Shown here piece by piece: positions 1 to 57,210 of a stretch of 64,000 bases of DNA. Made by a program: the position numbers and the translations under genes. This DNA is from a bacterium (GTDB lineage: Bacteria > RBG-13-66-14): positions 4,503-68,502 of the forward strand of contig DATKYS010000051.1 in assembly GCA_035528375.1 (NCBI GenBank), written 5' to 3'. Below the pieces are notes generated by a model. That model made no database searches and was not told the DNA's origin. It saw nothing but the letters and a program-made list of their open reading frames with translations. The stretch's first letter is position 1; each line of letters starts with the position of its first letter.

Positions 1-397
1 CCTCCCGGTCGGTCCGCTCGACCATCGCCCCCTTGTCGCACTTCCAGCGGTCGGGCTCGCGGAAGTAGCCGCAGCAGCAGTCGCAGCAGAAGCAGATGCC
101 GTCGGCGCGCTCCGGTGTCACCTCGCGCCAGGGCCGTGCGACCAGGCGCTTCTGCCCGGCCTCGCGCAGGATGGCCAGGGCCTCCTCGCGGCTGATGGCC
201 CACGGGGCGCCGTCATCGCTGACCTCCTTCGCCCCGGGGAACATGAGGCACACGTCGGTGCGCGACCGTTCGCAGCCGCCCACCTCCTCGCGGCAGCCGC
301 AGTTGGTGAGCCGAAAGCCGCTCTGAGCCTCGATGAGCCGACGGGCCTCCTCGTGGGAGCATACACAGTGGATGTTGAAACCGCGCTCGTCCGTCAC
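1..397 (-). CDS. Cysteine-rich protein (CxxC..CFCCDCCCGY motifs), C-terminus truncated by window edge; possible Fe-S/metal-binding protein
   Basis: Manual translation of the minus strand from GTG at 397: VTDERGFNIHCVCSHEEARRLIEAQSGFRLTNCGCREEVGGCER...ICFCCDCCCGYFREPDRWKCDKG. The frame has no stop before the window edge. The GTG start overlaps the stop of the upstream VOC gene (GTGA). Confidence 0.4.
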   Translation of the reverse strand, partial: MTDERGFNIHCVCSHEEARRLIEAQSGFRLTNCGCREEVGGCERSRTDVCLMFPGAKEVSDDGAPWAISREEALAILREAGQKRLVARPWREVTPERADGICFCCDCCCGYFREPDRWKCDKGAMVERTDRE

Positions 398-756
398 TTG
401 CCCCCCTCGAGCGGCTTGAACACGCCGAACAGGGAGCCGTCGGGGTCGGAGAGGATGGAGAAGTTTCCGAGCTCGGGCGCCTCCTGGATGTCGGAGACCA
501 CGTCGCCGCCGAGCTTTTTGACCTTTTTCATATAGGGCTCCAGCTCGTCCACCTGGAAGTAGAGCAGCGGCCGGACGCTCGGCTCCAGATCGTCCACCTG
601 GGCCAGGGCGCCGGAGAGGCCCGAGGGCGTGTGGAACAGGATGTAGTTGTCGGCCCAGGGGATGAACTCCCAGCCGAAGAGGCCCTCGAAGAATTTCCGG
701 GTCGCCTCGATGTCGGTGCAGCCCCACTCGAAGTGGTACAGGTCGTGCTCGGCCAT
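394..756 (-). CDS. VOC-family (glyoxalase/bleomycin-resistance/dioxygenase fold) protein
   Basis: 120-aa ORF (MAEHDLYHFEWGCTDIEATRKFFEGLFGWEF...) with the typical small VOC-domain layout. It is a paralog of the ORF at 1662..2024. Confidence 0.75.
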   Translation of the reverse strand: MAEHDLYHFEWGCTDIEATRKFFEGLFGWEFIPWADNYILFHTPSGLSGALAQVDDLEPSVRPLLYFQVDELEPYMKKVKKLGGDVVSDIQEAPELGNFSILSDPDGSLFGVFKPLEGGK

Positions 757-815
757 GCCCCTCCCTTTCTGCAGTTATTCCAAGCGTCTCATAAACAAAA
801 TTACTGAATCAGATT

Positions 816-1589
816 TCACGCTTTTGCTTCTTTTTTAGTCTTGGATTTCGCGACAGATTTAGCGGCCTGCTTCAAAAAGTCCGCCGCTTGTTTCGCCTCT
901 TCGCCGTCCACAGTTTCTCTTTTAAGCACCTCATTTTGTAACTGTGCTTTAAGTTGATCCACTTGAATCTTGATGTTACCGCCAATATGCCTGAGTTCCC
1001 GCTTTAGCGCTTGAAGCATTGGCGGGCTGGTAAGGACTGCGGCAATTGAGAATTTGCTTGTTACTTGTTGCCGCTGGTAAAAAGCTGTCATGGATGATTG
1101 TGTAAAGCCTTCCCGGCTGAGGTTGCCGAAACACTCTATTAACTGCTGGTTACGTACGTTTTTTTGCAGGAGGTTAGTTTGAAAAATCAACGATTTGTCT
1201 ATGGGCTTGTGGAAGTGGATTTTATAAATCTGCCAAATTGCACCATTTGTGAGCACTACCCACTCTACACCGTGGTTTGCCCCATAGTCTAAAGCCTGCT
1301 TGATATGGCTGTCTTTAAGGGCGACGCCGATTGCTTTAACTTCAATTAAAAAACGCACATCGGCACCGACTTTAACGGCTAGGTCCACATATGTACCCCG
1401 AATGGCAAATTCTGTCGTAATTTCGGTGTACTTGTTATAACCGAGTATATCGGCAAGCATGTCAGCGATGATGACTACTGTGTCCGATTCGCTGATATCA
1501 CGGTCTTGTGCATCCGAAAGAATTGGTTGATACTTCTTGAGTTGTTGCACTATTCTATCGGAAACCTTTTTAGAAACAGCCATTTCCAA
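816..1589 (-). CDS. PD-(D/E)xK restriction-endonuclease-like protein (HsdR-N-like nuclease core) with Lys-rich coiled-coil tail, in an AT-rich island
   Basis: 257-aa ORF. Motif ...GTYVDLAV...(19 aa)...FLIEVKAIG matches the D...(D/E)xK nuclease core. The C-terminus is KQAAKSVAKSKTKKEAKA. The local sequence is clearly AT-richer than its flanks. Confidence 0.55.
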   Translation of the reverse strand: MEMAVSKKVSDRIVQQLKKYQPILSDAQDRDISESDTVVIIADMLADILGYNKYTEITTEFAIRGTYVDLAVKVGADVRFLIEVKAIGVALKDSHIKQALDYGANHGVEWVVLTNGAIWQIYKIHFHKPIDKSLIFQTNLLQKNVRNQQLIECFGNLSREGFTQSSMTAFYQRQQVTSKFSIAAVLTSPPMLQALKRELRHIGGNIKIQVDQLKAQLQNEVLKRETVDGEEAKQAADFLKQAAKSVAKSKTKKEAKA

Positions 1590-1661
1590 ACCACCCCTTT
1601 ACTAAAAATTGACTAACGTGGATGGGAACCGGACGCCGCGGCCCGATCCCCCGTCAACACT

Positions 1662-2024
1662 CTAGCCCTTCGGCTTGTCCTGGTAGAGGCCGAGGAGGTT
1701 CCCGTCGGGGTCCTTGACGATGGCGAACCAGCCGACCTCGGGAATCTCGGTCTTCGGCGTGTGGATGCGCCCGCCCAGGCCCTCCACCCGCGCCAGGTAG
1801 GGCTCTATCTCGTCCACCTCGACGTGGACCAGGGTGCCGGAGCCGCCCCGCATCTTGTCCACCCGGTTGAGGCCGCCGCCGGGACCGCCGGGGGTCGAGA
1901 ACAACAGGTAGTCGTCGCCCCACCCATCGAACTTCCAGTCCACAAAGAGGCCGACGAGGAAACGCCGCGTCCGCTCGAGGTCGGTGGAATCGAACTCGAC
2001 GTGGCAGATGTCGTGCTTACCCAA
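1662..2024 (-). CDS. VOC-family (glyoxalase-like) protein, paralog of 394..756
   Basis: 120-aa ORF (MGKHDICHVEFDSTDLERTRRFLVGLFVDWKF...) of the same length and with the same motif positions as 394..756. Confidence 0.75.
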   Translation of the reverse strand: MGKHDICHVEFDSTDLERTRRFLVGLFVDWKFDGWGDDYLLFSTPGGPGGGLNRVDKMRGGSGTLVHVEVDEIEPYLARVEGLGGRIHTPKTEIPEVGWFAIVKDPDGNLLGLYQDKPKG

Positions 2025-2397
2025 GATTGACTCCTTTCGCTGAATTACCGCACCGGGATTGCTGTGGATTCTCCGCGGGACACCGAACCCGATACGCTTC
2101 CCCCCCGTCGGCGCTCCCTCCGGTCCGGGTAACGCCGGTTTTACGCAGGGAAAGGATACAAAACCGCCCCGTCTGTGGCAAGGGTTTTAGTGCTTCGCCG
2201 GACGGCGGCCCGTCGAATGCAGACTCGATTGGTCGGAACGGCCGCGCCCCCCGGTCACGACCGTGTTTTTTTCTTCCGGGTCTTGACGGCGGGGAAGTTT
2301 CGGCTATTTTACCCGGTGGCGGAGGGTGGGCGGCCCGACCCGCGTAAAAAAGCGGGGGGTTAGGAAAACCAGGGGTTCACGGGCCGCCCTCCCCTAA

Positions 2398-2426
2398 ACC
2401 GCCGGCCGAAAGGTCGGCTTTTTTTA
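2398..2426 (+). terminator. Rho-independent terminator-like hairpin (GCCGA-AAGG-TCGGC) followed by T7
   Basis: gccggccgaaaggtcggcttttttt. There is no plus-strand CDS upstream of it, so it may end a small untranslated transcript. Confidence 0.4.
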
Positions 2427-2439
2427 TCCCCCACCCAGA

Positions 2440-2484
2440 CGTGCTATACTGATAAATGATGATGGAAAGGAAAAGGAGGAAAAA
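2440..2484 (+). promoter_or_regulatory. Putative promoter (-10 TATACT) and strong RBS (AAGGAGG) for the DNRLRE-like gene cluster
   Basis: gtgctatactgataaatgatgatggaaaggaaaaggaggaaaaaATG. This AT-rich stretch sits immediately after the terminator hairpin. Confidence 0.4.
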
Positions 2485-3132
2485 ATGAGGGGAATCGTCA
2501 TCCTCGTCCTGGCAGCCGCGGTCGGAGTCTGGGCCGCGGAGTGGATCACCGTGGAAGCCGACGCCGACAGCTACGTCTACTACTACAAAGATGACACCGA
2601 AGAAGAACCGCAGTACGTGGACGATAACTTCGGTGGAGAAGTAGAACTTTCCGCCTGGTACATCAATTTCTATCGGCGATACCCCTCGCTGATTCAACGA
2701 CGCTCCTTCATCTATTTCGATTTCGAGGGGATGGATCCCCAAAGTAGCGTTCTCGAAGCGATTCTGTCCCTTTACATCACCTACCTGGATTGGGGCGGTA
2801 GGTTCTGGGTGTATCGCTGCCGTGAAGCGTGGGATGAATACGAGGTCACCTGGAACGACCAACCGTGGTTTTCCGAAATTCTCGGTTCATGGGACGATAC
2901 CTTCCCCCTTTACCAGTACAGCGACGTCGCGGAGCTCAATGCCGAAGAGATAGAACTGATAGTGGATAATCCGGACGACAATAACGGTATTATCATTTTG
3001 ACCTCTGAGGACTGGAATTGTGTTGATTTCTCCTCGCGCGAAGGGGGCTTCCCGCCTCGGCTGAAACTCCTGGTCAGCGGGGCCGACGTCGTGGAGGCGA
3101 GCTGGGGGGAGATAAAGGCGGCGTTCGAGTAG
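2485..3132 (+). CDS. Secreted DNRLRE-like domain protein (paralog 1 of 3), C-terminal SWGEIKAAFE tail
   Basis: Signal peptide MRGIVILVLAAAVGVWA. Contains YVDDNFGGE and EVTWNDQPW motifs of the DNRLRE-type domain. Ends ...EASWGEIKAAFE. Confidence 0.6.
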   Translation: MRGIVILVLAAAVGVWAAEWITVEADADSYVYYYKDDTEEEPQYVDDNFGGEVELSAWYINFYRRYPSLIQRRSFIYFDFEGMDPQSSVLEAILSLYITYLDWGGRFWVYRCREAWDEYEVTWNDQPWFSEILGSWDDTFPLYQYSDVAELNAEEIELIVDNPDDNNGIIILTSEDWNCVDFSSREGGFPPRLKLLVSGADVVEASWGEIKAAFE

Positions 3133-3140
3133 GAGGAGAC

Positions 3141-3806
3141 ATGAACAGGATTTGGCTCGTTTGCGCGGTCTTCCTGGCCGCCGCGTCCGTCGCTCCGGCC
3201 ACCGAGCAGGTCGTCAAACTGGAAACAGATGGCGACAGCTATGTTTGTAGGTTTTACGAGCCGTCAGTACCCCTTGAGTTTTACGTCGACGACAACTTCG
3301 GCGATGCATGGGAGTTACATGTATCGAACACGTACACGTACATTTCGGATCCGTGGTGGATGGAAGTGCTCGAAATGGCATACATGCACTTTGATTTCTC
3401 CGGGCTCGGCGAATACGACGGCGCGGATTTGGTCGAGGCTCAACTGGTATTCAATGCCACTGATGCTGTCGAGGGAGCGGTACTCGCCGCCAAGGTGGCC
3501 GGCCCCTGGGAGGAGATGAGCATCACCTACAGAAACCGACCGCCGCGGGGCGACAGTGTGGCCTCGTTCGACATGGTCGAGGGGTACAACTACGTGGACC
3601 TCAATGTCGGCAAAATCGCGCCCTGGGTTGACGCGCCGGATTTGGCCTACGGCATCCAGCTTGACCATGGGGGGAATGGTAGTTGGGATAACTACGGGGT
3701 ATTCTGCAGCCGGGAAACCGATTCACCACCGGAGCTCTGGCTGACCTTCTCGGAGCCCGCGGTCCAGGAATCGAGCTGGGGGGAGATTAAGGCGTCATTC
3801 GAATAG
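3141..3806 (+). CDS. Secreted DNRLRE-like domain protein (paralog 2), C-terminal SWGEIKASFE tail
   Basis: Signal peptide MNRIWLVCAVFLAAASVAPA. Contains YVDDNFGDAWE. Ends ...ESSWGEIKASFE. It starts 8 nt after paralog 1 and has its own GGAGG RBS. Confidence 0.6.
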   Translation: MNRIWLVCAVFLAAASVAPATEQVVKLETDGDSYVCRFYEPSVPLEFYVDDNFGDAWELHVSNTYTYISDPWWMEVLEMAYMHFDFSGLGEYDGADLVEAQLVFNATDAVEGAVLAAKVAGPWEEMSITYRNRPPRGDSVASFDMVEGYNYVDLNVGKIAPWVDAPDLAYGIQLDHGGNGSWDNYGVFCSRETDSPPELWLTFSEPAVQESSWGEIKASFE

Positions 3807-3814
3807 GAGGCGAA

Positions 3815-4462
3815 ATGAACAACAGAGGTCGGCTCGTTTGCGCGGTCTTCCTGGCCGTCGCGACCACCGTCACGGCTACGGTCCAGGTCGTCCTGGAGGC
3901 CGACGGGGACAGCTACGTCAAATACTACGAAGAGTGGGAGAGCGACCCGGAGTACGCCGACGACAACTTCGGCGGCGAGCCTCTGATGTATGTGCTGGAT
4001 AACTATTACCAGTGGGGCGAGGAATTCGAGATACCCTTCATGCACTTCGATTTCTCGGGGCTCGGCGACTACGATGGCACGTATCTGGTCGGGGCGCAGC
4101 TCGTACTCCACGCCGCGTCTTACGCTAATGGTTTGCAGCAAGCCCACGCGGTGGGGGGCGCCTGGGAGGAGATGACCATCACATTCAACAACTGTCCGGG
4201 GGCGGGTGCCCTGTTGGCCTCCTTCTACATGGACGGTGGAGACAACTACGTGGACCTCGACATCGGCCCCATCGCGCCCTGGGTGGACGCGCCGGAAACG
4301 GCCTACGGAATCCTTATCTTTGACACCGAGCAGGTGTGGGAGGACGATCCTCCGGGGACAATCTACACCCGGGAGACCGAAAACGCGCCGGAGCTTTGGT
4401 TGACCTTCTCGGGGCCCGCGGTCGAGGGGGCGAGCTGGGGGGAGATCAAGGCGGCGTTCTAG
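3815..4462 (+). CDS. Secreted DNRLRE-like domain protein (paralog 3), C-terminal SWGEIKAAF tail
   Basis: Signal peptide MNNRGRLVCAVFLAVATTVTA. Contains YADDNFGGE. Ends ...GASWGEIKAAF. Confidence 0.6.
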   Translation: MNNRGRLVCAVFLAVATTVTATVQVVLEADGDSYVKYYEEWESDPEYADDNFGGEPLMYVLDNYYQWGEEFEIPFMHFDFSGLGDYDGTYLVGAQLVLHAASYANGLQQAHAVGGAWEEMTITFNNCPGAGALLASFYMDGGDNYVDLDIGPIAPWVDAPETAYGILIFDTEQVWEDDPPGTIYTRETENAPELWLTFSGPAVEGASWGEIKAAF

Positions 4463-4469
4463 CGGTTTT

Positions 4470-4742
4470 TTCACCCGCGGGCGACCGTGGACGGTCGCCC
4501 CTACGGGGGGCGCTGGATATTGACGTAGGGGCGGGTGTCCACACCCGCCCGTTTTTATCGACAAACCGCGATGATGTAGGGGCCGACCGACGGCGCGCCG
4601 TTCAGGTCGGCCCGCGGGCGACCGTGGACGGTCGCCCCTACGGTGAACTGCACGGTTCTAAATGTAGGGCGGGGACTTCAGTCCCCGCCGCTTTACCCCC
4701 CACCCTGACCCCCCCCAGAGGGGGGAGGGGATAGGGGAAACC
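4470..4742. repeat. REP-like palindromic element cluster (GTAGGGGCGACCGTCCACGGTCGCCCCTAC, GTAGGGGCGGGTGTCCACACCCGCCC, GTAGGGGCCGACC..GGTCGGCCC, GTAGGGCGGGGA..TCCCCGCC, CCCC..GGGGAGGGG units)
   Basis: Several distinct imperfect palindromes bounded by GTAG...CTAC are packed between the paralog-3 stop and the hutH stop. Confidence 0.8.
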
Positions 4743-4743
4743 G

Positions 4744-6264
4744 TCAGTCCAGCGGGCCGATGACCCCCTCGGCGGCCGCCAGTATCGCCCCCGAGCGCAC
4801 CAACTCGGCCATCTCGTTATTGTCGGCGTAGAGCGGCCGGTCCTCGTCCAGGTGCGCCACGTGCTCCCGGACCAGCCCGTAAACGGCTTTAGTGGCCGGG
4901 GCGAACTCGGTGTCGCGGAAATCGCGCGCCTGGCAGGCGGCCATGATTTCGATTCCCAGCACGCCGGGCACGAGGTCCATTATCTGGCGCGTCTTCAGGG
5001 CGGTGGTCCAGCCCATCGAGACGAAGTCCTCCTGGTCCGCCGCGGCGGGGATGCTGCCCACGGCCGCCGGCGTCGAGAGCACCCGACACTCGCAGATCAT
5101 GGCCCCGGCGGTGTACTGGGCCAGCATCAACCCGGAGAACATCCCGCCGCCGTGGGTCAGGAACCCGGGCAGCCCCGCCGACAGCGCGGGGTTCATCAGG
5201 CGGTTGATGCGCCGCTCGGCGAGGACCGCCGCCGTCACCACGCCCATCGAGGCGTACTCCAGGGCCAGGGCCATGGGCGTGCCCTGGAAGTTGGCCCCGG
5301 CGACGACCTCGTCGTCCTCGGGGAAGAAGACCGGGTTGTCGCCGACGCCGTTGAGCTCGGTGAGGAATACCTCGCGGGCGTGGGCCAGGGCGGTGCGGGC
5401 CGGACCGGCGGACTGGGGCGTCGAACGCAGGGAGTACGCGTCCTGGACCTTTTTGCCCGGACGCATCAAAAGCGGCGACCCTTCGGTCAGCCGCCGGACG
5501 TTTTTCGCCACCGTGATCGAGCCCCCGTGCCCCCGGACGCGGTGCAGCCTTTCGTCGTAGCCCGACATGTTGACGTTGAGGACCTCGAGGGTCATGGCGG
5601 CGGCCACGTCCTGGGTCTTGAGCCAGGTCTCCATCTCCAACAACAGAAGCGAACCCAGGCCGTTGATGAAGTTGGAGCCGTTGATGGAGGCCAGGCCGTC
5701 GCGGGCCTCGTAGGCGATGACCGGCACACCGGCCCGGCGCATCGCCTCGGCCCCGGGCAGCCGCTCGCCCCCGTAGAACGCCTCCCCCTCGCCCATCGCC
5801 ACCAGCGCCATCTGACCCATGGGCGACAGGTCACCCGAGGCCCCCACGGACCCCCGGGTGCAGACCACCGGGGTCACCCCGGCGTTGAGCATGGCAGCCA
5901 TGGTCTCCGGCACCTCGCGCCGGCAGCCGGAATTGCCGTGGACCAGCACGTTTATCCGGCCGGTCATCGCCGCCCGCACCCACGGCTCGGGCATGGGCTC
6001 CCCGATTCCCGCCGCGTGCGAGTAGATCAGATACCGCTGGAAATCACGGGTCTGCTCCGGCGTGAGCACCGTCTCGGAGAACTCGCCGATGCCCGTGGTC
6101 ACCCCGTACATGACCTCGCGGTTTTTTATCTTGACCTCGCACATGGCCCGGCAGCGGTCCACGCGCTCCAGGGCCTCGGGGGGAATCTCCACCCGCTCGC
6201 GGCCCACCGCGACGGCCTTCAGCCGCTCGAGGGTGAGGTTCTCGCCGCTGAGGATGACGGGCAT
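4744..6264 (-). CDS. hutH: Histidine ammonia-lyase (MIO-dependent aromatic amino-acid lyase family)
   Basis: MPVILSGENLTLERL... with the MIO-forming motif GSVGASGDLSPMG. GGAGAG RBS is 4 nt upstream of the ATG at 6264. The 800-aa ORF in the track is an upstream in-frame read-through of this gene. Confidence 0.9.
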   Translation of the reverse strand: MPVILSGENLTLERLKAVAVGRERVEIPPEALERVDRCRAMCEVKIKNREVMYGVTTGIGEFSETVLTPEQTRDFQRYLIYSHAAGIGEPMPEPWVRAAMTGRINVLVHGNSGCRREVPETMAAMLNAGVTPVVCTRGSVGASGDLSPMGQMALVAMGEGEAFYGGERLPGAEAMRRAGVPVIAYEARDGLASINGSNFINGLGSLLLLEMETWLKTQDVAAAMTLEVLNVNMSGYDERLHRVRGHGGSITVAKNVRRLTEGSPLLMRPGKKVQDAYSLRSTPQSAGPARTALAHAREVFLTELNGVGDNPVFFPEDDEVVAGANFQGTPMALALEYASMGVVTAAVLAERRINRLMNPALSAGLPGFLTHGGGMFSGLMLAQYTAGAMICECRVLSTPAAVGSIPAAADQEDFVSMGWTTALKTRQIMDLVPGVLGIEIMAACQARDFRDTEFAPATKAVYGLVREHVAHLDEDRPLYADNNEMAELVRSGAILAAAEGVIGPLD

Positions 6265-34519: not shown

Positions 34520-35923
34520 TCACTCCTCCATCTTCGGCGGGGTGCGGCTCCAGCCCATCAACGGCGCAGCTTCTTCGTAGAACACGTCCCACTGCCCGGT
34601 GTAAACCAGGTACCAGTCTCCTTTACCGGTGGAGAAGCTCAGCACCCGGACGGACGTCCCCGCCTCCAACACCCCCGCCTCGGCGGAACCCGCCTCCGGC
34701 AGACAGAGGAGGGTCAGCGGTTCGAGCAGCTCGCCATACGAGCCGTCCTCACACCGAACTTCGTAGAGAAGTCGGGTCAGGTTTACCGGGCTCCAGAAGT
34801 AACCCAGGGGCCGGGCGTAGTCGTTGCCCGGCGGGCAGTAGAGGGCGTAGAAGCCGGCCTCGGGAATCCAGCGGGCCTCCAGGTCCGTCGAGAACCACGT
34901 GCCGCCGGCGAGATAATCGGGCGGCGGCAGCGGGTGCCGCACCCAGTCCAGGGGACTGAGCCACTCGCGGGCCATCAGGATGTGGTCCGGCTCATCGAGG
35001 TAACTCATCACGGAGTGGTAGCGCATCACCTCCGGGGTCAGCTCCGCCCCGCCGCTGATGTAGAACCAGCGCCCGGTAGGTTCTTCCTCCCATTCGGGGA
35101 TGAACGCCCATTCGGTGTAATCGTAGATGCAACGCAGACCGTCGCCGTCCCGGATAAAGCCCAACACACGCTGTTGGGTTGAGGGAGGCCCTCCGACCGG
35201 CCTGGGGGATGAAGAGCGCGCGTCCAGGGTCAGTTGCAGCTCGGCCGCCCCGTCGCCGTTGAAGTCGCCCGCCTCCAGGCCGTAGAGGCTCCAGTTGTAG
35301 TCCCAACCGAGATATCCGGACTCCTTCTCCCGGGCGATGAACTCCTCCGCGGGCACCTCCTCGACGCTCGTCCCCAGGAAGAAATCGGCCAGGCGCACCT
35401 CGGCGCTGAACGAGCCCTCGACCCGGAGCACCAGTGGCAGGTAATAGACGTAATCCGTATCGTAGTAGAACTGCTCGTACTCCGCGTGGATTTCCCCCGG
35501 CCCGACCCGGACCTGCTCCGGGGCGCCGTCGGAGTCCAGGTCCGCGGCGAGCGTGAGCTCCGGCTCGCCGAAGGCGTGCTCGACGACCAGGTGGCGTACG
35601 CCATCCTCCTCCCAGTAGTAGTTATCCTCCTCGGCGGCGACGTAGCCGCGGAGGTCGCCCGAGCGCACCTCGGCCCAGACGTAATCATCCGATGAGTCGT
35701 AATCCACCGCCCAGGCCAGAATCTCGACCCGGTCGCCCCGGTGGAGCAGGCCGATTTTGTTCCCGTCCACCGACGGTGCGTCGCGGACGTTGAGTGCGTC
35801 CACGTCCACCAGGGCGTACATCGGCTCCGGTTCCGGCGTTGAAATCGAATCGGCCCACCCCGGCGCGTCCAGGGCCCCGGCGGCCGCCGTCAGGCCGAGA
35901 ACGATGACGGTCATCAATTTCAC
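34520..35923 (-). CDS. Secreted SH3b-domain protein of unknown function
   Basis: Signal peptide MKLMTVIVLGLTAAAGALDA. SH3b-like segment ALVDVDALNVRDAPSVDGNKIGLLHRGDRVEIL. Confidence 0.55.
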   Translation of the reverse strand: MKLMTVIVLGLTAAAGALDAPGWADSISTPEPEPMYALVDVDALNVRDAPSVDGNKIGLLHRGDRVEILAWAVDYDSSDDYVWAEVRSGDLRGYVAAEEDNYYWEEDGVRHLVVEHAFGEPELTLAADLDSDGAPEQVRVGPGEIHAEYEQFYYDTDYVYYLPLVLRVEGSFSAEVRLADFFLGTSVEEVPAEEFIAREKESGYLGWDYNWSLYGLEAGDFNGDGAAELQLTLDARSSSPRPVGGPPSTQQRVLGFIRDGDGLRCIYDYTEWAFIPEWEEEPTGRWFYISGGAELTPEVMRYHSVMSYLDEPDHILMAREWLSPLDWVRHPLPPPDYLAGGTWFSTDLEARWIPEAGFYALYCPPGNDYARPLGYFWSPVNLTRLLYEVRCEDGSYGELLEPLTLLCLPEAGSAEAGVLEAGTSVRVLSFSTGKGDWYLVYTGQWDVFYEEAAPLMGWSRTPPKMEE

Positions 35924-36552
35924 GGCGTCCCCCCCTTCGCCGCGGCGAGAAAGGCCGCGATGCCCTCGTTCAGCAGCTTTTCGAGCGATTTCGAGGTCTG
36001 GGTGGCCCCGGTGATGGCCGCCACCTCGTAGGGCTTGTCGGGGGCCTGGTAGGCCACGAGGCCCACGTAGCCCGGCGCCGGGCCCAGCGGCAGGTCGTCG
36101 AACTTTTGCAGAAACTCCGGCTCGGCGATCCGCCCCCCCAGCCCCGGCGTTTCCCCCTGCTCCAGGACCCGCAGGCGGTAAATATTTTTGTAATCGGGCG
36201 TCAGGGCCACCAGGACTTTAATCACGCTCCACAGGCCGCTCCCCGAGGCCTCGAACGCCACGCCCAGCTCCTTCCCCGCGTCGTCGTAGCCCCGGTAGAG
36301 CGTCATCCCGCCGGTCTGGTCCTTCTTGACGTGCTTGGAGTAAATTTCGTCCACCCGGGCGGGCGGGAGCTCCACCCCGGGGTCGGCCAGGCCGAAAACC
36401 TCGATGACGCGGCGGTTGAACAGGCGCGCCTTCTGCTCGTCTATCACCGGCTTGGTGTAGGCGTAGAGGGCGGTCAGGGCCGAGGCCACCAGCACCGAGG
36501 CGGCGACGAGGAAGAGGACCATGAAGGGCCGCGAGTCTTTATTGAAGGGCAT
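35920..36552 (-). CDS. nqrC: Nqr/Rnf FMN-binding subunit NqrC (RnfG homolog)
   Basis: N-terminal TM helix and the FMN-attachment motif AAITGATQTSKSL. Confidence 0.8.
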   Translation of the reverse strand: MPFNKDSRPFMVLFLVAASVLVASALTALYAYTKPVIDEQKARLFNRRVIEVFGLADPGVELPPARVDEIYSKHVKKDQTGGMTLYRGYDDAGKELGVAFEASGSGLWSVIKVLVALTPDYKNIYRLRVLEQGETPGLGGRIAEPEFLQKFDDLPLGPAPGYVGLVAYQAPDKPYEVAAITGATQTSKSLEKLLNEGIAAFLAAAKGGTP

Positions 36553-36955
36553 GTTGTTTTATCACTACGATGTTGTACGAGTAGAACTGATAGTCAGGAC
36601 CAGAATACAGATTCCCGGATGATGTCCGCCTCTGTTTTCTACCTTTCTCTTGATGCTGCTTAAGCACATCCTTGTATTGCTTATAGAGGCTATCCGAAAG
36701 ACCAATCAACTTTATGTCTGTAAATGACAGCAGTTCAAGCGTATCTAACTCCTCTCTGACATCGTATATCTCCCCGTAGGTTTTATTTATCCCTTTTTTG
36801 TCCGCCCAACTGGAGACGATATAGAACTCCCAACGCTCGTACAGACCGTAATAGGACCAGAAGGCGGCCTCGACGGGAATGCTGTGCTTGAGTAATGCCT
36901 TGACAATTATCGAGCCTTCCTCCCGATACTCCTTTACCAGAATGTTCTCAACCAT
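36539..36955 (-). CDS. Hypothetical protein, AT-rich island gene (putative partner of the HEPN protein)
   Basis: 138-aa ORF in a low-GC stretch with no recognisable motifs. It overlaps the HEPN gene by 22 nt and the nqrC start by 14 nt. Confidence 0.45.
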   Translation of the reverse strand: MVENILVKEYREEGSIIVKALLKHSIPVEAAFWSYYGLYERWEFYIVSSWADKKGINKTYGEIYDVREELDTLELLSFTDIKLIGLSDSLYKQYKDVLKQHQEKGRKQRRTSSGNLYSGPDYQFYSYNIVVIKQHALQ

Positions 36956-37347
36956 GATAGAACTCCATCGTGAGGATGTGTCACTGCCTCGAAAAGGTCT
37001 TCAGCTTCGTTTTTACTTTTCGTTGGCTCATACCTCGAATCAGGTTTCCATTTTTTTACTGTAGCCAAATATATCGCTGTCTGGTTATTCGCTGGTCCCT
37101 CTCCCAAAGCTGCTTTATCGAATAATTTATCGAAATTATGGGTCCAACTTGCATCCACACGTTCTTTCTCTGGGAATTCGTGTCGCCGGGTTCGTTTAGC
37201 AATTACAGCCTTCAGGGCACATTCAACGGCATACCCTATCAAGTAATAGGCACCGACGTATCTTCTAGCTTCTAACAAAATCTGAGCATCTCTTACGCGA
37301 TCAAGTGCCATTTGTTTTAAATCACTACTCATTAGTAGTGTACCCAT
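36934..37347 (-). CDS. HEPN-domain protein (putative RNase toxin/abortive-infection component)
   Basis: ...ARRYVGAYYLIGYAVECALKAVIAKR... is the HEPN helix. The Rx4-6H motif is present as R-VDASWT-H-NF. It is AT-rich and overlaps the nqrB stop. Confidence 0.6.
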   Translation of the reverse strand: MGTLLMSSDLKQMALDRVRDAQILLEARRYVGAYYLIGYAVECALKAVIAKRTRRHEFPEKERVDASWTHNFDKLFDKAALGEGPANNQTAIYLATVKKWKPDSRYEPTKSKNEAEDLFEAVTHPHDGVLSWLRTFW

Positions 37348-37348
37348 A

Positions 37349-38362
37349 TCAAACTCCCCTCTTTCTCTTTTGTCGTTCCTTAATAAGCGAGTCCACCAGC
37401 GGGGTGAAGGTGTTGGCGAAGAGGATGGCGAAGAAGACGCCCCCGGAGAAGCTCGACGCCGCTCGGATGATTACGACCAGAACGCCGATGAGCGCGCCCA
37501 TGAGCCAGCGGCCGCCGTTCGTGGCCGGGGCGCTCACCGGGTCGGTGGCGAAGAAGAGCGCCCCGAAGAGGAGCCCCCCGCCGGCCAGGGTGAACGGAAC
37601 GTCCGGGACGAAACCGGGCCAGAGGAAATGAAGCACGAGGGCGGCCAGCGACGCGGCGCCCAGGACCGCCAGCGGCGTGCGCCAGTTGACGATTTTCCGC
37701 GCGAGGAGGTAAATCCCCAAGAGGACGAGGAGAACCGCCGCCGTCTCACCCATCGCCCCGCCGGTGTCCCCCCAGAGCATCGGCCCCAGCGGCCCCTGGA
37801 CGCCGGAGCCCTTGAAGGCCGCCAGGGGGGTGGCGGTGGTCACCGCGTCGGCCGCGGTCAGGTCGGGGGCCCAGCGGGCGAACCCCCCGATCCCGCCCCA
37901 GAACGGCTTCCACCAGTAGCCGGCGAAGTACGTCGGGAAGCTGATGGTCACGAAGGCCCGCCCGACCAGCGCCGGGTTGAAAACATTGCGCCCGAAGCCC
38001 CCGAAGACCTCCTTCCCGAAGAGCTGCCCCACGGCCACCCCGATGACCACCAGCCACCAGGGGACGTGCGCCGGGAGGGTCAGGCCGAAAAGAAGCGCCG
38101 TAATCCAGAAGCTGGGGTCCATGGGCCGACGGCGGACGATGGAGAACGCCGCGGCGGTGACCCAGCCCACGGCGTAGGCCAGGGCCAAAAGGAAGGCGCA
38201 GCGCCAGCCGAAGAGATAAACCGAGGTGAGCGCGAGGGGGAGGAAGGCCCAGGAGAACTTGGCGTGGAGCGGCAGGGGCTTGGTCCGGCCCCGGAAGAAG
38301 GGCAGGGCGTGGAGGCTTCCGCGCGCATGGTCCGCGAGAGAGGGCTTCGTAGCGTCCGCCAT
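37349..38362 (-). CDS. nqrB: Nqr/Rnf subunit NqrB (RnfD homolog)
   Basis: FGGFGRNVFNPALVGRAFV motif, a polytopic layout, and a TxAT FMN-site-like segment (DAVTTATPL). Confidence 0.85.
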   Translation of the reverse strand: MADATKPSLADHARGSLHALPFFRGRTKPLPLHAKFSWAFLPLALTSVYLFGWRCAFLLALAYAVGWVTAAAFSIVRRRPMDPSFWITALLFGLTLPAHVPWWLVVIGVAVGQLFGKEVFGGFGRNVFNPALVGRAFVTISFPTYFAGYWWKPFWGGIGGFARWAPDLTAADAVTTATPLAAFKGSGVQGPLGPMLWGDTGGAMGETAAVLLVLLGIYLLARKIVNWRTPLAVLGAASLAALVLHFLWPGFVPDVPFTLAGGGLLFGALFFATDPVSAPATNGGRWLMGALIGVLVVIIRAASSFSGGVFFAILFANTFTPLVDSLIKERQKRKRGV

Positions 38363-44052: not shown

Positions 44053-44133
44053 GTTTTTTTCTTGAAATTCTTGTGAATGTGGTATAATATTTACCACAGA
44101 CACTTGAACAGACAACATAGTAATGGAGGAGCT

Positions 44134-44499
44134 ATGTTCGGTGACTTCGTAAAGGCGCAAAGATTGGCGTTGGATTTGAGCCTACGCCAATTTTGCCAGA
44201 AGCTGGAACTGGATCCCAGCAACTGGAGCAAGGTCGAGCGCGGGATTCTTCCGCCGCCCAAGGATGAGGTATTTCTGGAGCGGTTGGCAAATTTACTGCA
44301 AATCGAAATTGGCTCACCGAAGTGGCAAGAGCTCTCCGACCTGGCGCATGTTGACCGGGGAGAGATCCCAGGGTATGTGATGCAGGATGAGGAGCTAGTT
44401 AAATTGCTGCCCGTCTTTTTCAGGACCATTGACAGCATCAAACCCACTAGACAAGAGATAATCCAACTGCTGGAGAGCATTAAGGAGGCGCATAAATGA
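44134..44499 (+). CDS. XRE-family helix-turn-helix transcriptional regulator (AT-rich island)
   Basis: MFGDFVKAQRLALDLSLRQFCQKLELDPSNWSKVERG is a Cro/C1-type HTH. Perfect RBS taatGGAGGAgctATG. Confidence 0.7.
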   Translation: MFGDFVKAQRLALDLSLRQFCQKLELDPSNWSKVERGILPPPKDEVFLERLANLLQIEIGSPKWQELSDLAHVDRGEIPGYVMQDEELVKLLPVFFRTIDSIKPTRQEIIQLLESIKEAHK

Positions 44500-45110
44500 G
44501 CTTTCAATTCATGTGTCCCTTCATCAGAAAGGAAGAGCTTTGGGGGAGGGCGGAAGATATTCGGACCACTTACCTAGTGGACTATAAATTACCTATTGAT
44601 AGCGAGCTGATATGCGAAAAGGCAGGCTTGGATGTAGTACCAACAGCTATGCCGAATGTATTCGATTGTTGCATCATTGTAAGTAGAAATGAGTTATGTG
44701 TTAGTCTGAATAGATATTTAGATGACCGTAACGAAAATCGTCTTCGTTTCACTTTTGCGCACGAATTGGGGCACTTCATCTTACACCGGAGCATTCTTGA
44801 AGAGTTAAGTCTGCAAACGATAGATGATTATCTGGAATTCTTGGATGCAGAGCAAGATGAAGCGTATTTACGTTTTGAGTTTCAAGCCAATGAATTTGCA
44901 GGGCGTCTGTTAGTGCCTAGAGACCTGCTTCAAGAGAGATTCGAAAAGCTAATAAGCTCGATTCCGTCTGACCAACGGGCATTTGTTGCAGATAATCTTG
45001 ACTACCTAAAAACCGTGGCGAGCGAAAAGATTTGTGTCGAGTTTGGTGTTTCCCCAAGAGTCATAGCAATAAGGCTCGAACGCGAAGGGTTGTGGCCTCC
45101 CAGGTTGTAG
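44496..45110 (+). CDS. ImmA/IrrE-family zinc metallopeptidase (DUF955, HEXXH)
   Basis: FAHELGHFILH motif. It overlaps the XRE gene by ATGA. Confidence 0.8.
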   Translation: MSFQFMCPFIRKEELWGRAEDIRTTYLVDYKLPIDSELICEKAGLDVVPTAMPNVFDCCIIVSRNELCVSLNRYLDDRNENRLRFTFAHELGHFILHRSILEELSLQTIDDYLEFLDAEQDEAYLRFEFQANEFAGRLLVPRDLLQERFEKLISSIPSDQRAFVADNLDYLKTVASEKICVEFGVSPRVIAIRLEREGLWPPRL

Positions 45111-51769: not shown

Positions 51770-52873
51770 TTAAAACTCCGCCTTGACGGCGCCCCAACTC
51801 GTCTGCACCACGTTGAGCTCCTCGGTGGTAAAGCTCCAGACGAAGTCGTATCTCATCTCACGACCGGTACGATCCGCCAGGCAACCGTCCACGGTGCAGG
51901 TGATGAGGTCCACCGGCAGGTCCTCGTCGGGGGTGAATGTGCAGACGACATCGGTCCAGTCGCTGTCATCAATCACGAGCGTTCCCGGAATCTCGCCCGC
52001 GGGCCGGGGATTACAGCTCGTCGAGAGGGAAGACGAACCGGCGCGCAGGGCTCTGTCTCCCGATCGCCGCGACTGGTCCTCCGCCGTGAAGACTATCGTG
52101 GAAACTTCAATTCCAAACATCCCGCTGCAACAGTGGAACACGATGTCCCTGCCCACCGGCACGTCGGATTCCCCGTCATCGGGGTCCATGCCCTCCACCC
52201 AAGGTCGGGGGGAGGTATCGTACCCTATCGCGAATTTGATGGCGTTGTTGTAGAGCACCCAGCCGTCGCCGTCCCAAAAGTGGTAGTCACCGGGGCACAG
52301 GTTGACGGCGGCAGCGAAGCACCATTCACTGACCGCCACCATGTCGGTGCCGTTTTCCAGGTCGGCGATCCAGATAGCGCCGCTCTCCGTCGAGATGTAC
52401 TGCCAGTAGTTGATGTGGGAAATGCTCGAAACGCCGTCCATGATGCCCCAGTAATCTTCGTAATCGCCCAGGCGGGTGCTGGAGTGATAGGTGTAGCCGC
52501 GGGTCAGGGGGCAGTAGTCAGGGTCGCTGGCGTAACGGCCGGCGATGCCCCAGCTGCCCGAGTCGTGAGCGAAGCAGCAGGATACGACGCCGCCGTAGTA
52601 GTCTAAGTAGTCGGCCAGGTTATTCCCGAAGGCCGTGGGGTCGTCGTAGGCGTAGTTGCTCCACGTGAAGACGACGCCGTAATCGTTCAGGGTGTCCATG
52701 CTGGGGGTGGTCGTGGTGCAGTCCAGGAATGTAACGCTGTCGTAGTAGGGGTCGCCGCCGATGTAGGTTTGGGCGTCCGAGGTTGCGCCGGGGTCGGTGT
52801 GGCAGATCAAGATGTCGTACCGCCCCGCGATAGCCGCGGTAACGACCACCAAGACTAACAACGCTCTTCGCAT
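51770..52873 (-). CDS. Secreted protein of unknown function with Ig-like C-region and C-terminal ...QTSWGAVKAEF tail (paralog A)
   Basis: Signal peptide MRRALLVLVVVTAAIAG. Ends ...FVWSFTTEELNVVQTSWGAVKAEF. Confidence 0.6.
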   Translation of the reverse strand: MRRALLVLVVVTAAIAGRYDILICHTDPGATSDAQTYIGGDPYYDSVTFLDCTTTTPSMDTLNDYGVVFTWSNYAYDDPTAFGNNLADYLDYYGGVVSCCFAHDSGSWGIAGRYASDPDYCPLTRGYTYHSSTRLGDYEDYWGIMDGVSSISHINYWQYISTESGAIWIADLENGTDMVAVSEWCFAAAVNLCPGDYHFWDGDGWVLYNNAIKFAIGYDTSPRPWVEGMDPDDGESDVPVGRDIVFHCCSGMFGIEVSTIVFTAEDQSRRSGDRALRAGSSSLSTSCNPRPAGEIPGTLVIDDSDWTDVVCTFTPDEDLPVDLITCTVDGCLADRTGREMRYDFVWSFTTEELNVVQTSWGAVKAEF

Positions 52874-52907: not shown

Positions 52908-54017
52908 TTAAAACTCCGCCTTGATGGCCCCCCAACTCGTCTGCACCACGTTGAGCTCCTCGGTGGTAAAGCTCCAGACGAAGTCCTCCTCCATCTCGAT
53001 ATCGTAGCGGTTGGCCAGGCCGGCGGCGACGGTGCAGGTGATGGCGTCGTCGCCGTTCAGCGGATCGGCGGGGGTGAAGGTGCAGACGACATCCCTGGGG
53101 TCGGTGTCGTCCAGGTCCAGGTCGCCGGCGATCGAGCGGGCGGACTCGAAGTTGGCGCTGATGGCGGCGCTGGCGCTCACCGCACGGCCACCGGAGAGGG
53201 TGGTGTCGCGGGCGGTGAAGTCAATCGTATCCAGGTCAATGGCGAAGAAGTCATCCACGCAGTGAAAGACGATGTTGGTGTCCACCGGCACGCCGGTGTC
53301 CCCGTCGTCGGGGTCCATGCCGGTCACGTAAGGCGGATCATTCGGTATCCAGTAGTTCGTGAGCACGTTCTCCCACAGTTGCTGCTCCTGGCCGCCGCCG
53401 ATGAAGCTCTCATACAGGCCGGTGACGACACCCATGCCGTTCTCCGCCTCCAGAATACCAGCCTGGCCGGCGGTCTCGGTCGCGGTCCAACCGGTCACCG
53501 GGTGAGCGGTGGTCCACGGGTAGCGGTGGTGATAGACGCTTAAGCCCCAGCCGTGGTCGTCCAGTGTCCACGAGGTGATGCCATAGGTGAAGGCGTGGCC
53601 CAGATCCCAGCAGTAGTGGGACGCGGTGAAGACCATCGAGGTCGGGTTGCCGACCCCCATGGCCGTCTCGAGGGCGTCGTTGTAGCTGCCGTGCGCGTAC
53701 CAGTCGAAGTAGTGCAGCTTTGCGAAGTCGTTGTACCAGTTCGTCAGGGCGGTGTAGTCGCTGGTGGTGTAGCTGGTGTAGTTAATTGCGGCGACGATGC
53801 ACATATCCCAGTCGCCGCCTGTCAGGCTGGATATGAAGGTGGACCAGGTGCTGCCATCGTAGTACGTGGCGGAGCAACTCGGCCACAGGTCGCTTATCGC
53901 GCTGGAGAGGTAGCTGCCGCCGTACGCAGTGTCGTACTTGACGATTATGTTGTCGGGGTCCTGCCCCATCGAAGCCAGTACCAACAGAGACCACAGTATT
54001 ATCAACGCCTTGCGCAT
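52908..54017 (-). CDS. Secreted paralog B with the same C-terminal ...QTSWGAIKAEF tail
   Basis: Signal peptide MRKALIILWSLLVLASMG. The last 25 aa are almost identical to paralog A. Confidence 0.6.
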   Translation of the reverse strand: MRKALIILWSLLVLASMGQDPDNIIVKYDTAYGGSYLSSAISDLWPSCSATYYDGSTWSTFISSLTGGDWDMCIVAAINYTSYTTSDYTALTNWYNDFAKLHYFDWYAHGSYNDALETAMGVGNPTSMVFTASHYCWDLGHAFTYGITSWTLDDHGWGLSVYHHRYPWTTAHPVTGWTATETAGQAGILEAENGMGVVTGLYESFIGGGQEQQLWENVLTNYWIPNDPPYVTGMDPDDGDTGVPVDTNIVFHCVDDFFAIDLDTIDFTARDTTLSGGRAVSASAAISANFESARSIAGDLDLDDTDPRDVVCTFTPADPLNGDDAITCTVAAGLANRYDIEMEEDFVWSFTTEELNVVQTSWGAIKAEF

Positions 54018-55745: not shown

Positions 55746-56000
55746 CTACTTGGCCTGGAACTTCTTCACCAGCGCCACGATGGAGTTCACCGTGTCGAAG
55801 GCCTCGGGGGTGGCCTCCTCGTCGGGGAGCTTGATGTCGTACTTCTTCTCCAGGAAGACCTTGAGGGAGACCATGGAGAAGCTGTCCACGATTCCGCTGG
55901 AGATGAGCGGCGTATCGTCATCTATTTTGATGTCGTCGTCCTCGTCAACGTATTCGCCGATGACGTACTCGCGGACGGTATCGTGCATCTCGCGGGACAT
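55746..56000 (-). CDS. Acyl-carrier-protein-like protein (phosphopantetheine-attachment Ser in ...SSGIVDSFSMV...)
   Basis: 84 aa, acidic, with a DSx-type attachment motif and ACP length. Confidence 0.6.
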   Translation of the reverse strand: MSREMHDTVREYVIGEYVDEDDDIKIDDDTPLISSGIVDSFSMVSLKVFLEKKYDIKLPDEEATPEAFDTVNSIVALVKKFQAK

Positions 56001-56036: not shown

Positions 56037-56387
56037 TTAACTTTCATCTATCTCAATCAAGTTAACTGCTTCCTGTTTTAGTCTGGAGCTTATTATTTGA
56101 TTCATTAAATTGTAATCGTTTTTATCCATTTTTTTAACTTTAAGTCTATTTTTTACCTCACATAAAGGTAACGACATCACCAATAAGCCAAATGCTTCAT
56201 CAAGAAAAGAAACTGAAGCGATAATTAACCCTTCAAAGTCCAAAATAATAACTTCACCCTTAGGCCATCGGCCTATAATAGCTTCTCTAACTGCTTTCCC
56301 TGCATCACGCGTCGCAACCCACTGACCAGCAGTTATTTTCTTAATTGAAAAGATCATCCGAAATCTCCTCGAAAAGTGTTTGTTCAT
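56037..56387 (-). CDS. STAS-like (DUF4325-type) small protein, AT-rich island
   Basis: ...GEVIILDFEGLIIASVSFLDEAFGLL... is a STAS/anti-sigma-antagonist-like core. Low GC. Confidence 0.45.
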   Translation of the reverse strand: MNKHFSRRFRMIFSIKKITAGQWVATRDAGKAVREAIIGRWPKGEVIILDFEGLIIASVSFLDEAFGLLVMSLPLCEVKNRLKVKKMDKNDYNLMNQIISSRLKQEAVNLIEIDES

Positions 56388-57210
56388 CTGTATAGACTAG
56401 AGGGATAATTATATAAATAGTAACGCCTTTTACATAAGCAGTTAATTTTTTCACGATTCTACGTGTTTTCTTTTTTTGTTTTTCATATGTAACCATACCC
56501 AAACCAGACAAATAACTTACATTTCCATTAACGTTTAATATACCTACCTTAATATGTTGCAGTCCCATTCCCCCAACAGCCTGTTTTCTCGTTGTAACTT
56601 GTGTTTCTACTGCTGTTTTTATTGCTTCAATATCATTAGATAAATCTTTTTTTACTGTTAACAATGAATTTAAAAACCCTATACCATAGTCTGAAATTGA
56701 AATATGAATTTGTTTTTTCTTAGAGTAAATTTGACCACATACAACACACCCAAACGGTGATTCACTATGGTCTTTTACATTCGTTGTTAATTCATTCATA
56801 CATAATTGAGTTATAAATAATATATTATCATGCAAATAAGGAACTTGGTCCTTAATTATCTCTAAATATTCTAACACTTTCTGCTCATAGTGTTTACTAA
56901 TAGGAGTAAGTTCGAATGTAGTTCTATTCAACTTCCTTGTTGTAGCTTGACCATAAAATCCACTTGATTTTAAATATTCTCTAGTTCCTTGTGACCTTGG
57001 TTCAATTATATACAATCTTTTAAAATTCCTGAAATATTGTTTTATTGAATGATATAATAGAGATATTGCAAATGGTTTAATACTTAGTACATTACTAAAA
57101 TCCAGAGTTACTTCATCTTTGGTTTCTGATAATTCATTACATCTTTTTATCATTGCATCCACAAAATGAATACTTAAATGTGAATGAAACTTTATTGTTT
57201 TCATAATCAA
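56341..57210 (-). CDS. GHKL-superfamily ATPase (RsbW/SpoIIAB-like histidine-kinase-like ATPase), AT-rich island
   Basis: N-box LCMNELTTNVKDHS, G1 box ISDYGIGF and G2 GGMGL. Low GC. It overlaps the downstream STAS-like gene. Confidence 0.55.
   Translation of the reverse strand: MIMKTIKFHSHLSIHFVDAMIKRCNELSETKDEVTLDFSNVLSIKPFAISLLYHSIKQYFRNFKRLYIIEPRSQGTREYLKSSGFYGQATTRKLNRTTFELTPISKHYEQKVLEYLEIIKDQVPYLHDNILFITQLCMNELTTNVKDHSESPFGCVVCGQIYSKKKQIHISISDYGIGFLNSLLTVKKDLSNDIEAIKTAVETQVTTRKQAVGGMGLQHIKVGILNVNGNVSYLSGLGMVTYEKQKKKTRRIVKKLTAYVKGVTIYIIIPLVYTDEQTLFEEISDDLFN

Follow-up and report, generated by a model that had tools for sequence, protein, structure and literature searches.

The closest described systems to the gene reported here are restriction enzymes that carry a nuclease of the PD-(D/E)xK type, namely the HsdR subunit of type I enzymes (EcoR124I, PDB 2w00; a V. 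vulnificus fragment, 3h1t), the heads of type IIG/IIL enzymes (BpuSI, 3s1s; DrdV, 7lo5; MmeI-like enzymes) and the predicted type IV enzymes (COG2810-type or Mrr-like). A QxxxY motif has been described for HsdR and RecB-type nucleases, and a further point of reference is provided by the repressor-operon exclusion genes of temperate phages, such as lambda rexAB, which are co-transcribed with cI. Here we describe a gene for a solitary nuclease of the family phrog_17239, found on the minus strand at 816-1583 of a 64,000 nucleotide stretch of bacterial DNA (GenBank assembly GCA_035528375.1, contig DATKYS010000051.1, positions 4,503 to 68,502), referred to throughout as the window, where it lies on a foreign cassette between two glyoxalase-fold genes of the VOC family, VOC2 and VOC1. 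In a survey of PD-(D/E)xK proteins, HSDR_N_2 and COG2810 are placed in one group with EcoR124I HsdR, and predicted type IV enzymes are mentioned (PMC3424549). Our preferred reading, to which we give about an even chance, is that the product of this captured phage-type cassette is an active endonuclease that gives methyltransferase-independent protection against incoming DNA.

The window protein cannot be a type I enzyme because it has 255 residues, no superfamily 2 (SF2) helicase/translocase domains and no HsdM or HsdS partner nearby, being flanked by the VOC genes; instead it carries a family-specific helical C-terminal domain. Unlike the type IIG/IIL enzymes it has neither methyltransferase nor target-recognition domains, and is effectively a detached head with a different tail. 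It resembles the predicted type IV enzymes in being a solitary PD-(D/E)xK nuclease with no cognate methylase, but no modified-base reader domain was recognised in residues 138-255 by Pfam, PDB and fold searches, and residues 138-227 have no detectable relative. Phage copies of the family resemble lambda rexAB in their position just downstream of a CI- or LexA-like repressor in the same orientation, some beside an integrase, whereas the proteins are unrelated, the chemistry is presumably unrelated, and the window copy is parted from any repressor. The recurrent conserved target of homing endonuclease genes is not seen, as the family copies lie in unrelated contexts. Compared with phrog_17239 as a whole, the window copy is a chromosomal, non-prophage member with no structural difference.

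Three co-oriented minus-strand open reading frames (ORFs), VOC2, the 255-aa ORF and VOC1, occupy window 394-2024. The features of this region are as follows, with L numbers denoting comparison loci.

1662-2024, minus strand: VOC2, the upstream glyoxalase-fold paralogue, a host gene of 120 aa (ORF list, Pfam), also present in L006-L008
1624-1651, minus strand: host hairpin just 3' of VOC2, stem GGGACCGG/CCGGTCCC (alignment of relatives, centroid fold)
767-1617, minus strand: low-GC inserted cassette of about 850 bp, edges uncertain by 1-3 bp (junction alignments against empty sites)
1584-1617, minus strand: foreign 5' leader of 34 nt with the Shine-Dalgarno-like AAAGGGGTGG
816-1583, minus strand: nuclease coding sequence (CDS), phrog_17239 family, 255 aa, stop codon 816-818, database protein P0001 (ORF list)
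767-815, minus strand: foreign 3' trailer of 49 nt, also kept in the L005 scar (junction alignment)
394-756, minus strand: VOC1, the downstream glyoxalase-fold paralogue, a host gene of 120 aa (ORF list, Pfam)
L005 4833-4990: deletion scar, equal to window 767-909 joined to about 2099

VOC1 was used to scan species-representative genomes, and four related loci were recovered, of which two carry the name Candidatus Coatesbacteria. In L006, L007 and L008 the genes VOC2 and VOC1 were directly adjacent (in L007 at 4583-4945 and 5001-5363), and window 1624-2586 and 1-766 aligned contiguously to these empty sites with about 8-45 bp between. The cassette thus begins about 6 nt past the hairpin at 1624-1651 and ends just ahead of the VOC1 ribosome-binding site GGGAGGGG, which is intact at about 757-766. 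The GC-rich hairpin was found at the same position between VOC2 and VOC1 in all three relatives, with a conserved stem and a variable loop; as it has no downstream U-tract it is not a canonical intrinsic terminator. VOC1 overlaps the next gene (Fer4, ferredoxin) by 4 bp. A foreign single-gene cassette therefore entered the 55-bp spacer of a VOC2-VOC1-ferredoxin array that already existed in a Coatesbacteria-like lineage, and the presence or absence of the cassette is polymorphic among relatives. Because the sites are empty in three relatives, the nuclease gene was acquired horizontally and is not vertically conserved in this lineage.

GC content was 0.42-0.47 over about 780-1600 as against 0.64-0.73 in the flanks, and 0.44 for the cassette as a whole as against about 0.65 around it, while GC at third codon positions (GC3) was 0.465 in the nuclease ORF versus 0.94 and 0.93 in the VOC genes. 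The ORF list begins the nuclease at a TTG at 1589 (816-1589); we took the ATG at 1583 as the real start, and the 255-aa product from this codon is identical to P0001. VOC1 scored 29.6 and 29.8 bits with Pfam Glyoxalase and Glyoxalase_6, above threshold, and VOC2 was borderline for Glyoxalase (21.0 bits, cut-off 20.6); the two proteins share 44% identity across 115 residues. The original prediction, made from the letters alone, had described two 120-aa VOC paralogues flanking an AT-rich segment of about 0.85 kb with a single ORF, and this description held, with the empty sites now placing the segment at about 767-1617. It had offered two explanations, of which insertion into an existing tandem duplication stood, and a duplication generated by the insertion was ruled out, given that the two VOC proteins share no more than 44% identity and that both genes are intact and adjacent in relatives that have no insert. 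The comparison with related genomes and the search for a target-site duplication that it had proposed gave, respectively, the three empty sites and no duplication at the junctions.

The nuclease is the sole ORF of the cassette. No target-site duplication or terminal inverted repeat was found at the junctions or anywhere in 700-1700, and there is no transposase in the insert, so that the identity of an insertion sequence or transposon was set aside. An integron cassette had been suggested by a GTTAGTC at the 5' junction and was likewise dropped, since the 49-nt trailer held no extended, attC-like palindrome and flank comparisons across family copies revealed no conserved non-coding ends. The simplest reading of the route is illegitimate recombination of a phage-derived fragment. 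A promoter scan found no minus-strand site within the insert, the nearest being at 2181-2153, upstream of VOC2. Because the insert holds no promoter-like site, shares the strand of the host genes and leaves both ribosome-binding sites intact, transcription of the nuclease gene probably reads through from the promoter of VOC2.

A further relative, L005, carries a remnant of the same insert. Its VOC1 and ferredoxin genes are about 92.6% identical to those of the window, and it keeps 143 bp of the 3' end of the insert (window 767-909, 87.4% identity) fused to sequence that lies upstream of VOC2. The remainder of the nuclease gene was lost together with VOC2 in a deletion of about 1.2 kb. Since L005 holds a remnant of the insert, the insertion is older than the split of the window and L005 lineages; the cassette was kept intact in the former and mostly deleted with VOC2 in the latter. 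The same insert was present at 99.9% identity or more in contigs from other samples (L001, L002, L047, L048). Over 2.6 kb the sole differences between these four near-identical contigs and the window were two single nucleotide polymorphisms, at window 1113 and 1175, both in the nuclease CDS and too few to interpret.

These comparisons bear on the possibility that the cassette is a neutral passenger, a piece of phage DNA caught by illegitimate recombination, intact by chance, with no role in the host and on its way to loss. Its absence from three relatives and deletion in L005, the lack of a promoter of its own and the extreme mismatch in codon usage (GC3 of 0.47 versus 0.94) are all as such a passenger would have them. 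We nevertheless consider it improbable, as the ORF is intact with all family-conserved residues over a time in which the L005 remnant fell to 87% identity and the flanking genes to about 93%, the same insert occurs in several samples, and the family is under strong purifying selection throughout, solo copies included.

The nuclease protein matched Pfam HSDR_N_2 (PF13588) over residues 49-125 with 29.4 bits (gathering cut-off 25). An AlphaFold2 model was built from 24 homologues (mean predicted local distance difference test score 84.9) and showed the restriction-endonuclease-like alpha/beta fold, in which D67 adjoins the strand at 68-72 and E81 and K83 stand at the end of the strand at 75-82. 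The parts of the protein map to the window as follows.

1440-1583, minus strand: N-terminal helical pair, residues 1-48 (AlphaFold2 helices 5-27 and 32-47), with conserved R10, E32-S33-D34 and T35
1173-1439, minus strand: PD-(D/E)xK nuclease core, residues 49-137 (Pfam, conservation)
1383-1385, 1341-1343 and 1335-1337, minus strand: catalytic codons D67, E81 and K83, respectively, followed by Q96 and Y100
819-1172, minus strand: C-terminal all-helical domain (residues 138-227) and lysine-rich terminal helix (228-255) (AlphaFold2 secondary structure)

Among close homologues 68 alignment columns were invariant, D67, E81 and K83 with them, and in a wider set of 56 sequences with identity down to 28% the residues conserved in at least 90% were R10, E32, T35, G48, E58, D67, E81, K83, L89, Q96, Y100, L111, T112, N113 and W117. 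The conserved residues therefore include both the D...ExK triad and the QxxxY motif, and the window copy retains every one of them. Residues 138-227 are conserved across the family, whereas the helix at 228-255 is a low-complexity stretch of variable length. The HsdR-N-like core that had been proposed from YVDLAV and FLIEVKA is borne out, as these segments hold D67 and E81-x-K83, lie within the HSDR_N_2 match and stay in register across homologues; the lysine-rich tail was also correctly seen, with residues 228-254 predicted by AlphaFold2 to form one long helix with falling confidence. Most likely the protein is catalytically active and cuts DNA as a metal-dependent endonuclease that uses D67, E81, K83 and the QxxxY motif.

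Searches of PDB sequences with the single protein and with the family profile returned nothing significant, and matches were obtained by fold comparison alone. The best structural and sequence matches overall were the nuclease heads of restriction enzymes. This is relevant to a second explanation, that the protein is an accessory of DNA metabolism, a structure-specific nuclease acting on repair, recombination or replication intermediates or in prophage induction or maintenance. An accessory useful to phage and host alike would explain the very strong conservation described below. We judge it unlikely, since the best matches were not resolvases or RecB-type repair nucleases, the phage copies lie in the repressor operon and not in recombination or replication modules, and the gene is dispensable in close relatives. 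Both it and the neutral passenger are nevertheless serious competitors of a role in defence.

The family itself is large. The protein matched phrog_17239 (PHROGs v4, 'unknown function') over its full length (E 6.3e-78, residues 1-253 to profile positions 2-254 of 259), while phrog_14719 aligned through the nuclease head only (positions 15-198 of 833). A word-index search gave 3643 homologues, the best 120 of which had 66-78% identity and were named from Pseudomonadota, Gallionella, Methylotenera and Syntrophales; an exhaustive search of 50%-identity representatives gave 2179 at E of 1e-3 or below and 195 at E of 1e-30 or below, mostly full-length proteins of 250-290 aa. A search of NCBIfam with the nuclease found no meaningful match, a distant blastn search against the E. 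coli genomes was negative, and IMG labels some members 'predicted type IV restriction endonuclease'. The window gene belongs to a family that is annotated yet uncharacterised, and its host phylum is an unusual one for that family. Two systems met in the literature, SNIPE (a membrane nuclease) and the Fc02 exclusion genes, proved unrelated to it.

To determine the genomic setting of phage copies we used a sample of 29 IMG/VR loci. The nuclease gene was usually directly downstream of a regulator gene and co-oriented with it, with gaps mostly below 100 bp, and among the 25 non-redundant upstream neighbours Peptidase_S24 was present in 12 and HTH_3 in 13, and one was Arc-like. The same order of repressor then nuclease was seen on long assembly contigs in lambdoid and Mu-like prophages. 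In Thermus phage Riverbug a LexA-like regulator is followed by the family gene (gp55, annotated 'restriction endonuclease'), a periplasmic protein and an integrase, an arrangement noted by its authors, who proposed without experiment a lysogen-expressed defence module (PMC11437467). Downstream neighbours were heterogeneous (integrases, recombinases, amidases, a HipA-like kinase), and no conserved methylase, immunity protein or antitoxin was found among them. A methylase was present in 1/19. A crude motif and tblastn scan of the window gave no methyltransferase signature, only a secreted protein with chance motifs, so that the search for a cognate methyltransferase that had been suggested was negative in the window and nearly so among those 19 downstream neighbours of family members. 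The earlier view that a standalone nuclease with no methyltransferase would be unusual was not supported, as the family has thousands of members that are typically solitary.

From the IMG/VR loci and a few long contigs the family had appeared to be essentially always prophage-borne; this was corrected by the neighbours in general metagenomes, which are mostly chromosomal. Eight more metagenome loci had no ORF in the 450 bp upstream, and most of these were on large contigs of up to 2.4 Mb. Methylotenera genomes carried solo copies at two distinct chromosomal sites, with mutual similarity ending at the ends of the CDS, and the nucleotide similarity of the window gene to its homologues also stopped at the CDS. 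Flank similarity across all loci was confined to syntenic relatives, from which it follows that vertical inheritance of some solo copies is long-standing and that the gene has no portable element ends. A third setting besides prophage and chromosome was observed in Leptospira weilii, where a 45%-identical member (L039, plasmid pDO6, NZ_CP040842, 6001-6837) was found on six plasmids, amid toxin-antitoxin genes (PIN-like, HigB, MazEF) and IS5 copies.

Pairwise ratios of nonsynonymous to synonymous substitution (dN/dS, Nei-Gojobori) were 0.02-0.07 for solo-solo, prophage-prophage and window-homologue pairs, with synonymous sites often saturated, and retention in Methylophilaceae-like genomes was long and vertical. 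Together with the contexts, these values bear on whether the gene is a selfish element that promotes its spread or retention, whether as a free-standing homing endonuclease or as a toxin or addiction gene. Such an element would be suited by the nuclease chemistry, by the toxin-antitoxin surroundings on the Leptospira plasmids and by the occurrence of the gene as a single-gene island at chromosomal sites that are unrelated (the window, L004, L049). Homing or selfish behaviour is nonetheless unlikely, because copies sit at unrelated sites with no flanks in common, no partner gene accompanies them and purifying selection is strong; with no recurrent target site, copies alike only within the CDS, no terminal inverted repeats or target-site duplication, no conserved antitoxin or immunity partner, and low dN/dS with long vertical retention that does not match the gain and decay cycle of homing genes, we see little chance that a selfish element accounts for the locus. 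As solo copies occur with no repressor, the repressor is not an obligatory antidote. Where the original prediction had named either defence or a homing or selfish element, the second part is thus disfavoured and the first is plausible, given the place of the family next to prophage repressors.

In the preferred reading of a captured phage-type cassette, a foreign gene with its own ribosome-binding site would be read through from the VOC2 promoter and its product would cleave DNA in a metal-dependent manner by way of D67, E81, K83 and QxxxY. The helical C-terminal domain and basic tail would probably contact DNA or another substrate, replacing the helicase, methylase and specificity modules of type I and type IIG enzymes. 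The family gene of temperate phages lies in the repressor operon, where lysogen-expressed exclusion genes are placed, and solo chromosomal copies, that of the window included, would be captured versions of the phage gene. A role in defence or exclusion appears most likely because of the restriction-enzyme ancestry and the place in prophage repressor operons, and would take the form of methyltransferase-independent protection against phage or foreign DNA, either type IV-like or structure-specific. We propose more tentatively, as a possibility short of an even chance, that phrog_17239 is an unrecognised single-gene anti-phage or superinfection-exclusion system, which would combine an HsdR-type nuclease head and a private helical domain with expression from prophage repressor operons, repeated chromosomal capture and methyltransferase-free discrimination of self from foreign DNA, the window being one such capture.

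Several observations weigh against a defence role. In general metagenomes only about 6 of the 37 non-redundant upstream neighbours were helix-turn-helix (HTH) regulators (4 with S24), the rest being ordinary chromosomal genes, and the solo copies lie among housekeeping genes and not in defence islands. The very strong conservation points the same way, as a dN/dS of about 0.02 with long vertical retention is seen more typically with housekeeping-type functions than with defence genes, which evolve fast. There is no evident means of self-sparing, and we know of no route by which a solitary nuclease with neither methylase nor recognisable modification-reader domain spares self DNA. PADLOC-DB v2.0.0 has no model of the family, its sole match being weak and partial, to the nuclease head of a type II methyltransferase model (E 1.7e-5, N-terminus of MTase_II, positions 24-106 of 831), our literature search found no experimental study of any phrog_17239 member, and expression of the gene in this host is something that we infer.

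As a locus, this is ordinary horizontal transfer, a clean, well-bounded single-gene acquisition into an operon for which empty sites and a deletion scar are both available, so that the window, the empty sites and L005 form a natural series of before, after and lost. The family is the more useful lead, with thousands of members in distant phyla, strong purifying selection and a recurrent place in phage repressor operons, and if it is a defence or exclusion nuclease its manner of sparing self DNA would be worth knowing. Cultured handles are provided by Thermus phage Riverbug, the Methylotenera isolates and the Leptospira weilii plasmids.

Other low-GC islands were observed in the window. A two-gene cassette at 36539-37347 (minus strand, GC about 0.46) encodes a 138-aa protein of unknown family and a 137-aa HEPN-domain protein (Pfam HEPN 5e-9; PADLOC candidate PDC-M28A 2e-11), and sits inside an apparent rnf operon, with an RnfG-like FMN_bind gene (35920-36552) on one side and RnfD (37349-38362) on the other. 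At 44077-45110 (plus strand, GC 0.42-0.49) a 140-aa HTH_31 regulator gene overlaps that of a 204-aa Peptidase_M78/ImmA-IrrE metalloprotease (PADLOC capP 8e-20), with no obvious adjacent effector gene. A very low-GC island at 56037-57210 (minus strand, 0.27-0.34 compared with 0.64 for the whole window) codes for two proteins, one HATPase_c-like (289 aa) and one DUF4325 STAS-like (116 aa), each with a weak match to the N-terminal part of PADLOC DrmA, and is adjoined by an 84-aa carrier-protein-like ORF at 55746-56000.

A C-terminal motif, SWG(E/A)(I/V)KA(A/S/E)F(E), ends five signal-peptide proteins of the window, three of which are tandem CBM96 paralogues.

2485-3132, plus strand: signal-peptide protein with the SWG-type ending
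3141-3806, plus strand: signal-peptide protein with the SWG-type ending
3815-4462, plus strand: signal-peptide protein with the SWG-type ending
51770-52873, minus strand: signal-peptide protein with the SWG-type ending
52908-54017, minus strand: signal-peptide protein with the SWG-type ending

The same ending was found on CBM96-like proteins and a 463-aa protein in the related Coatesbacteria loci L005 and L007, and may represent a C-terminal tag, specific to the lineage, for sorting or anchoring.
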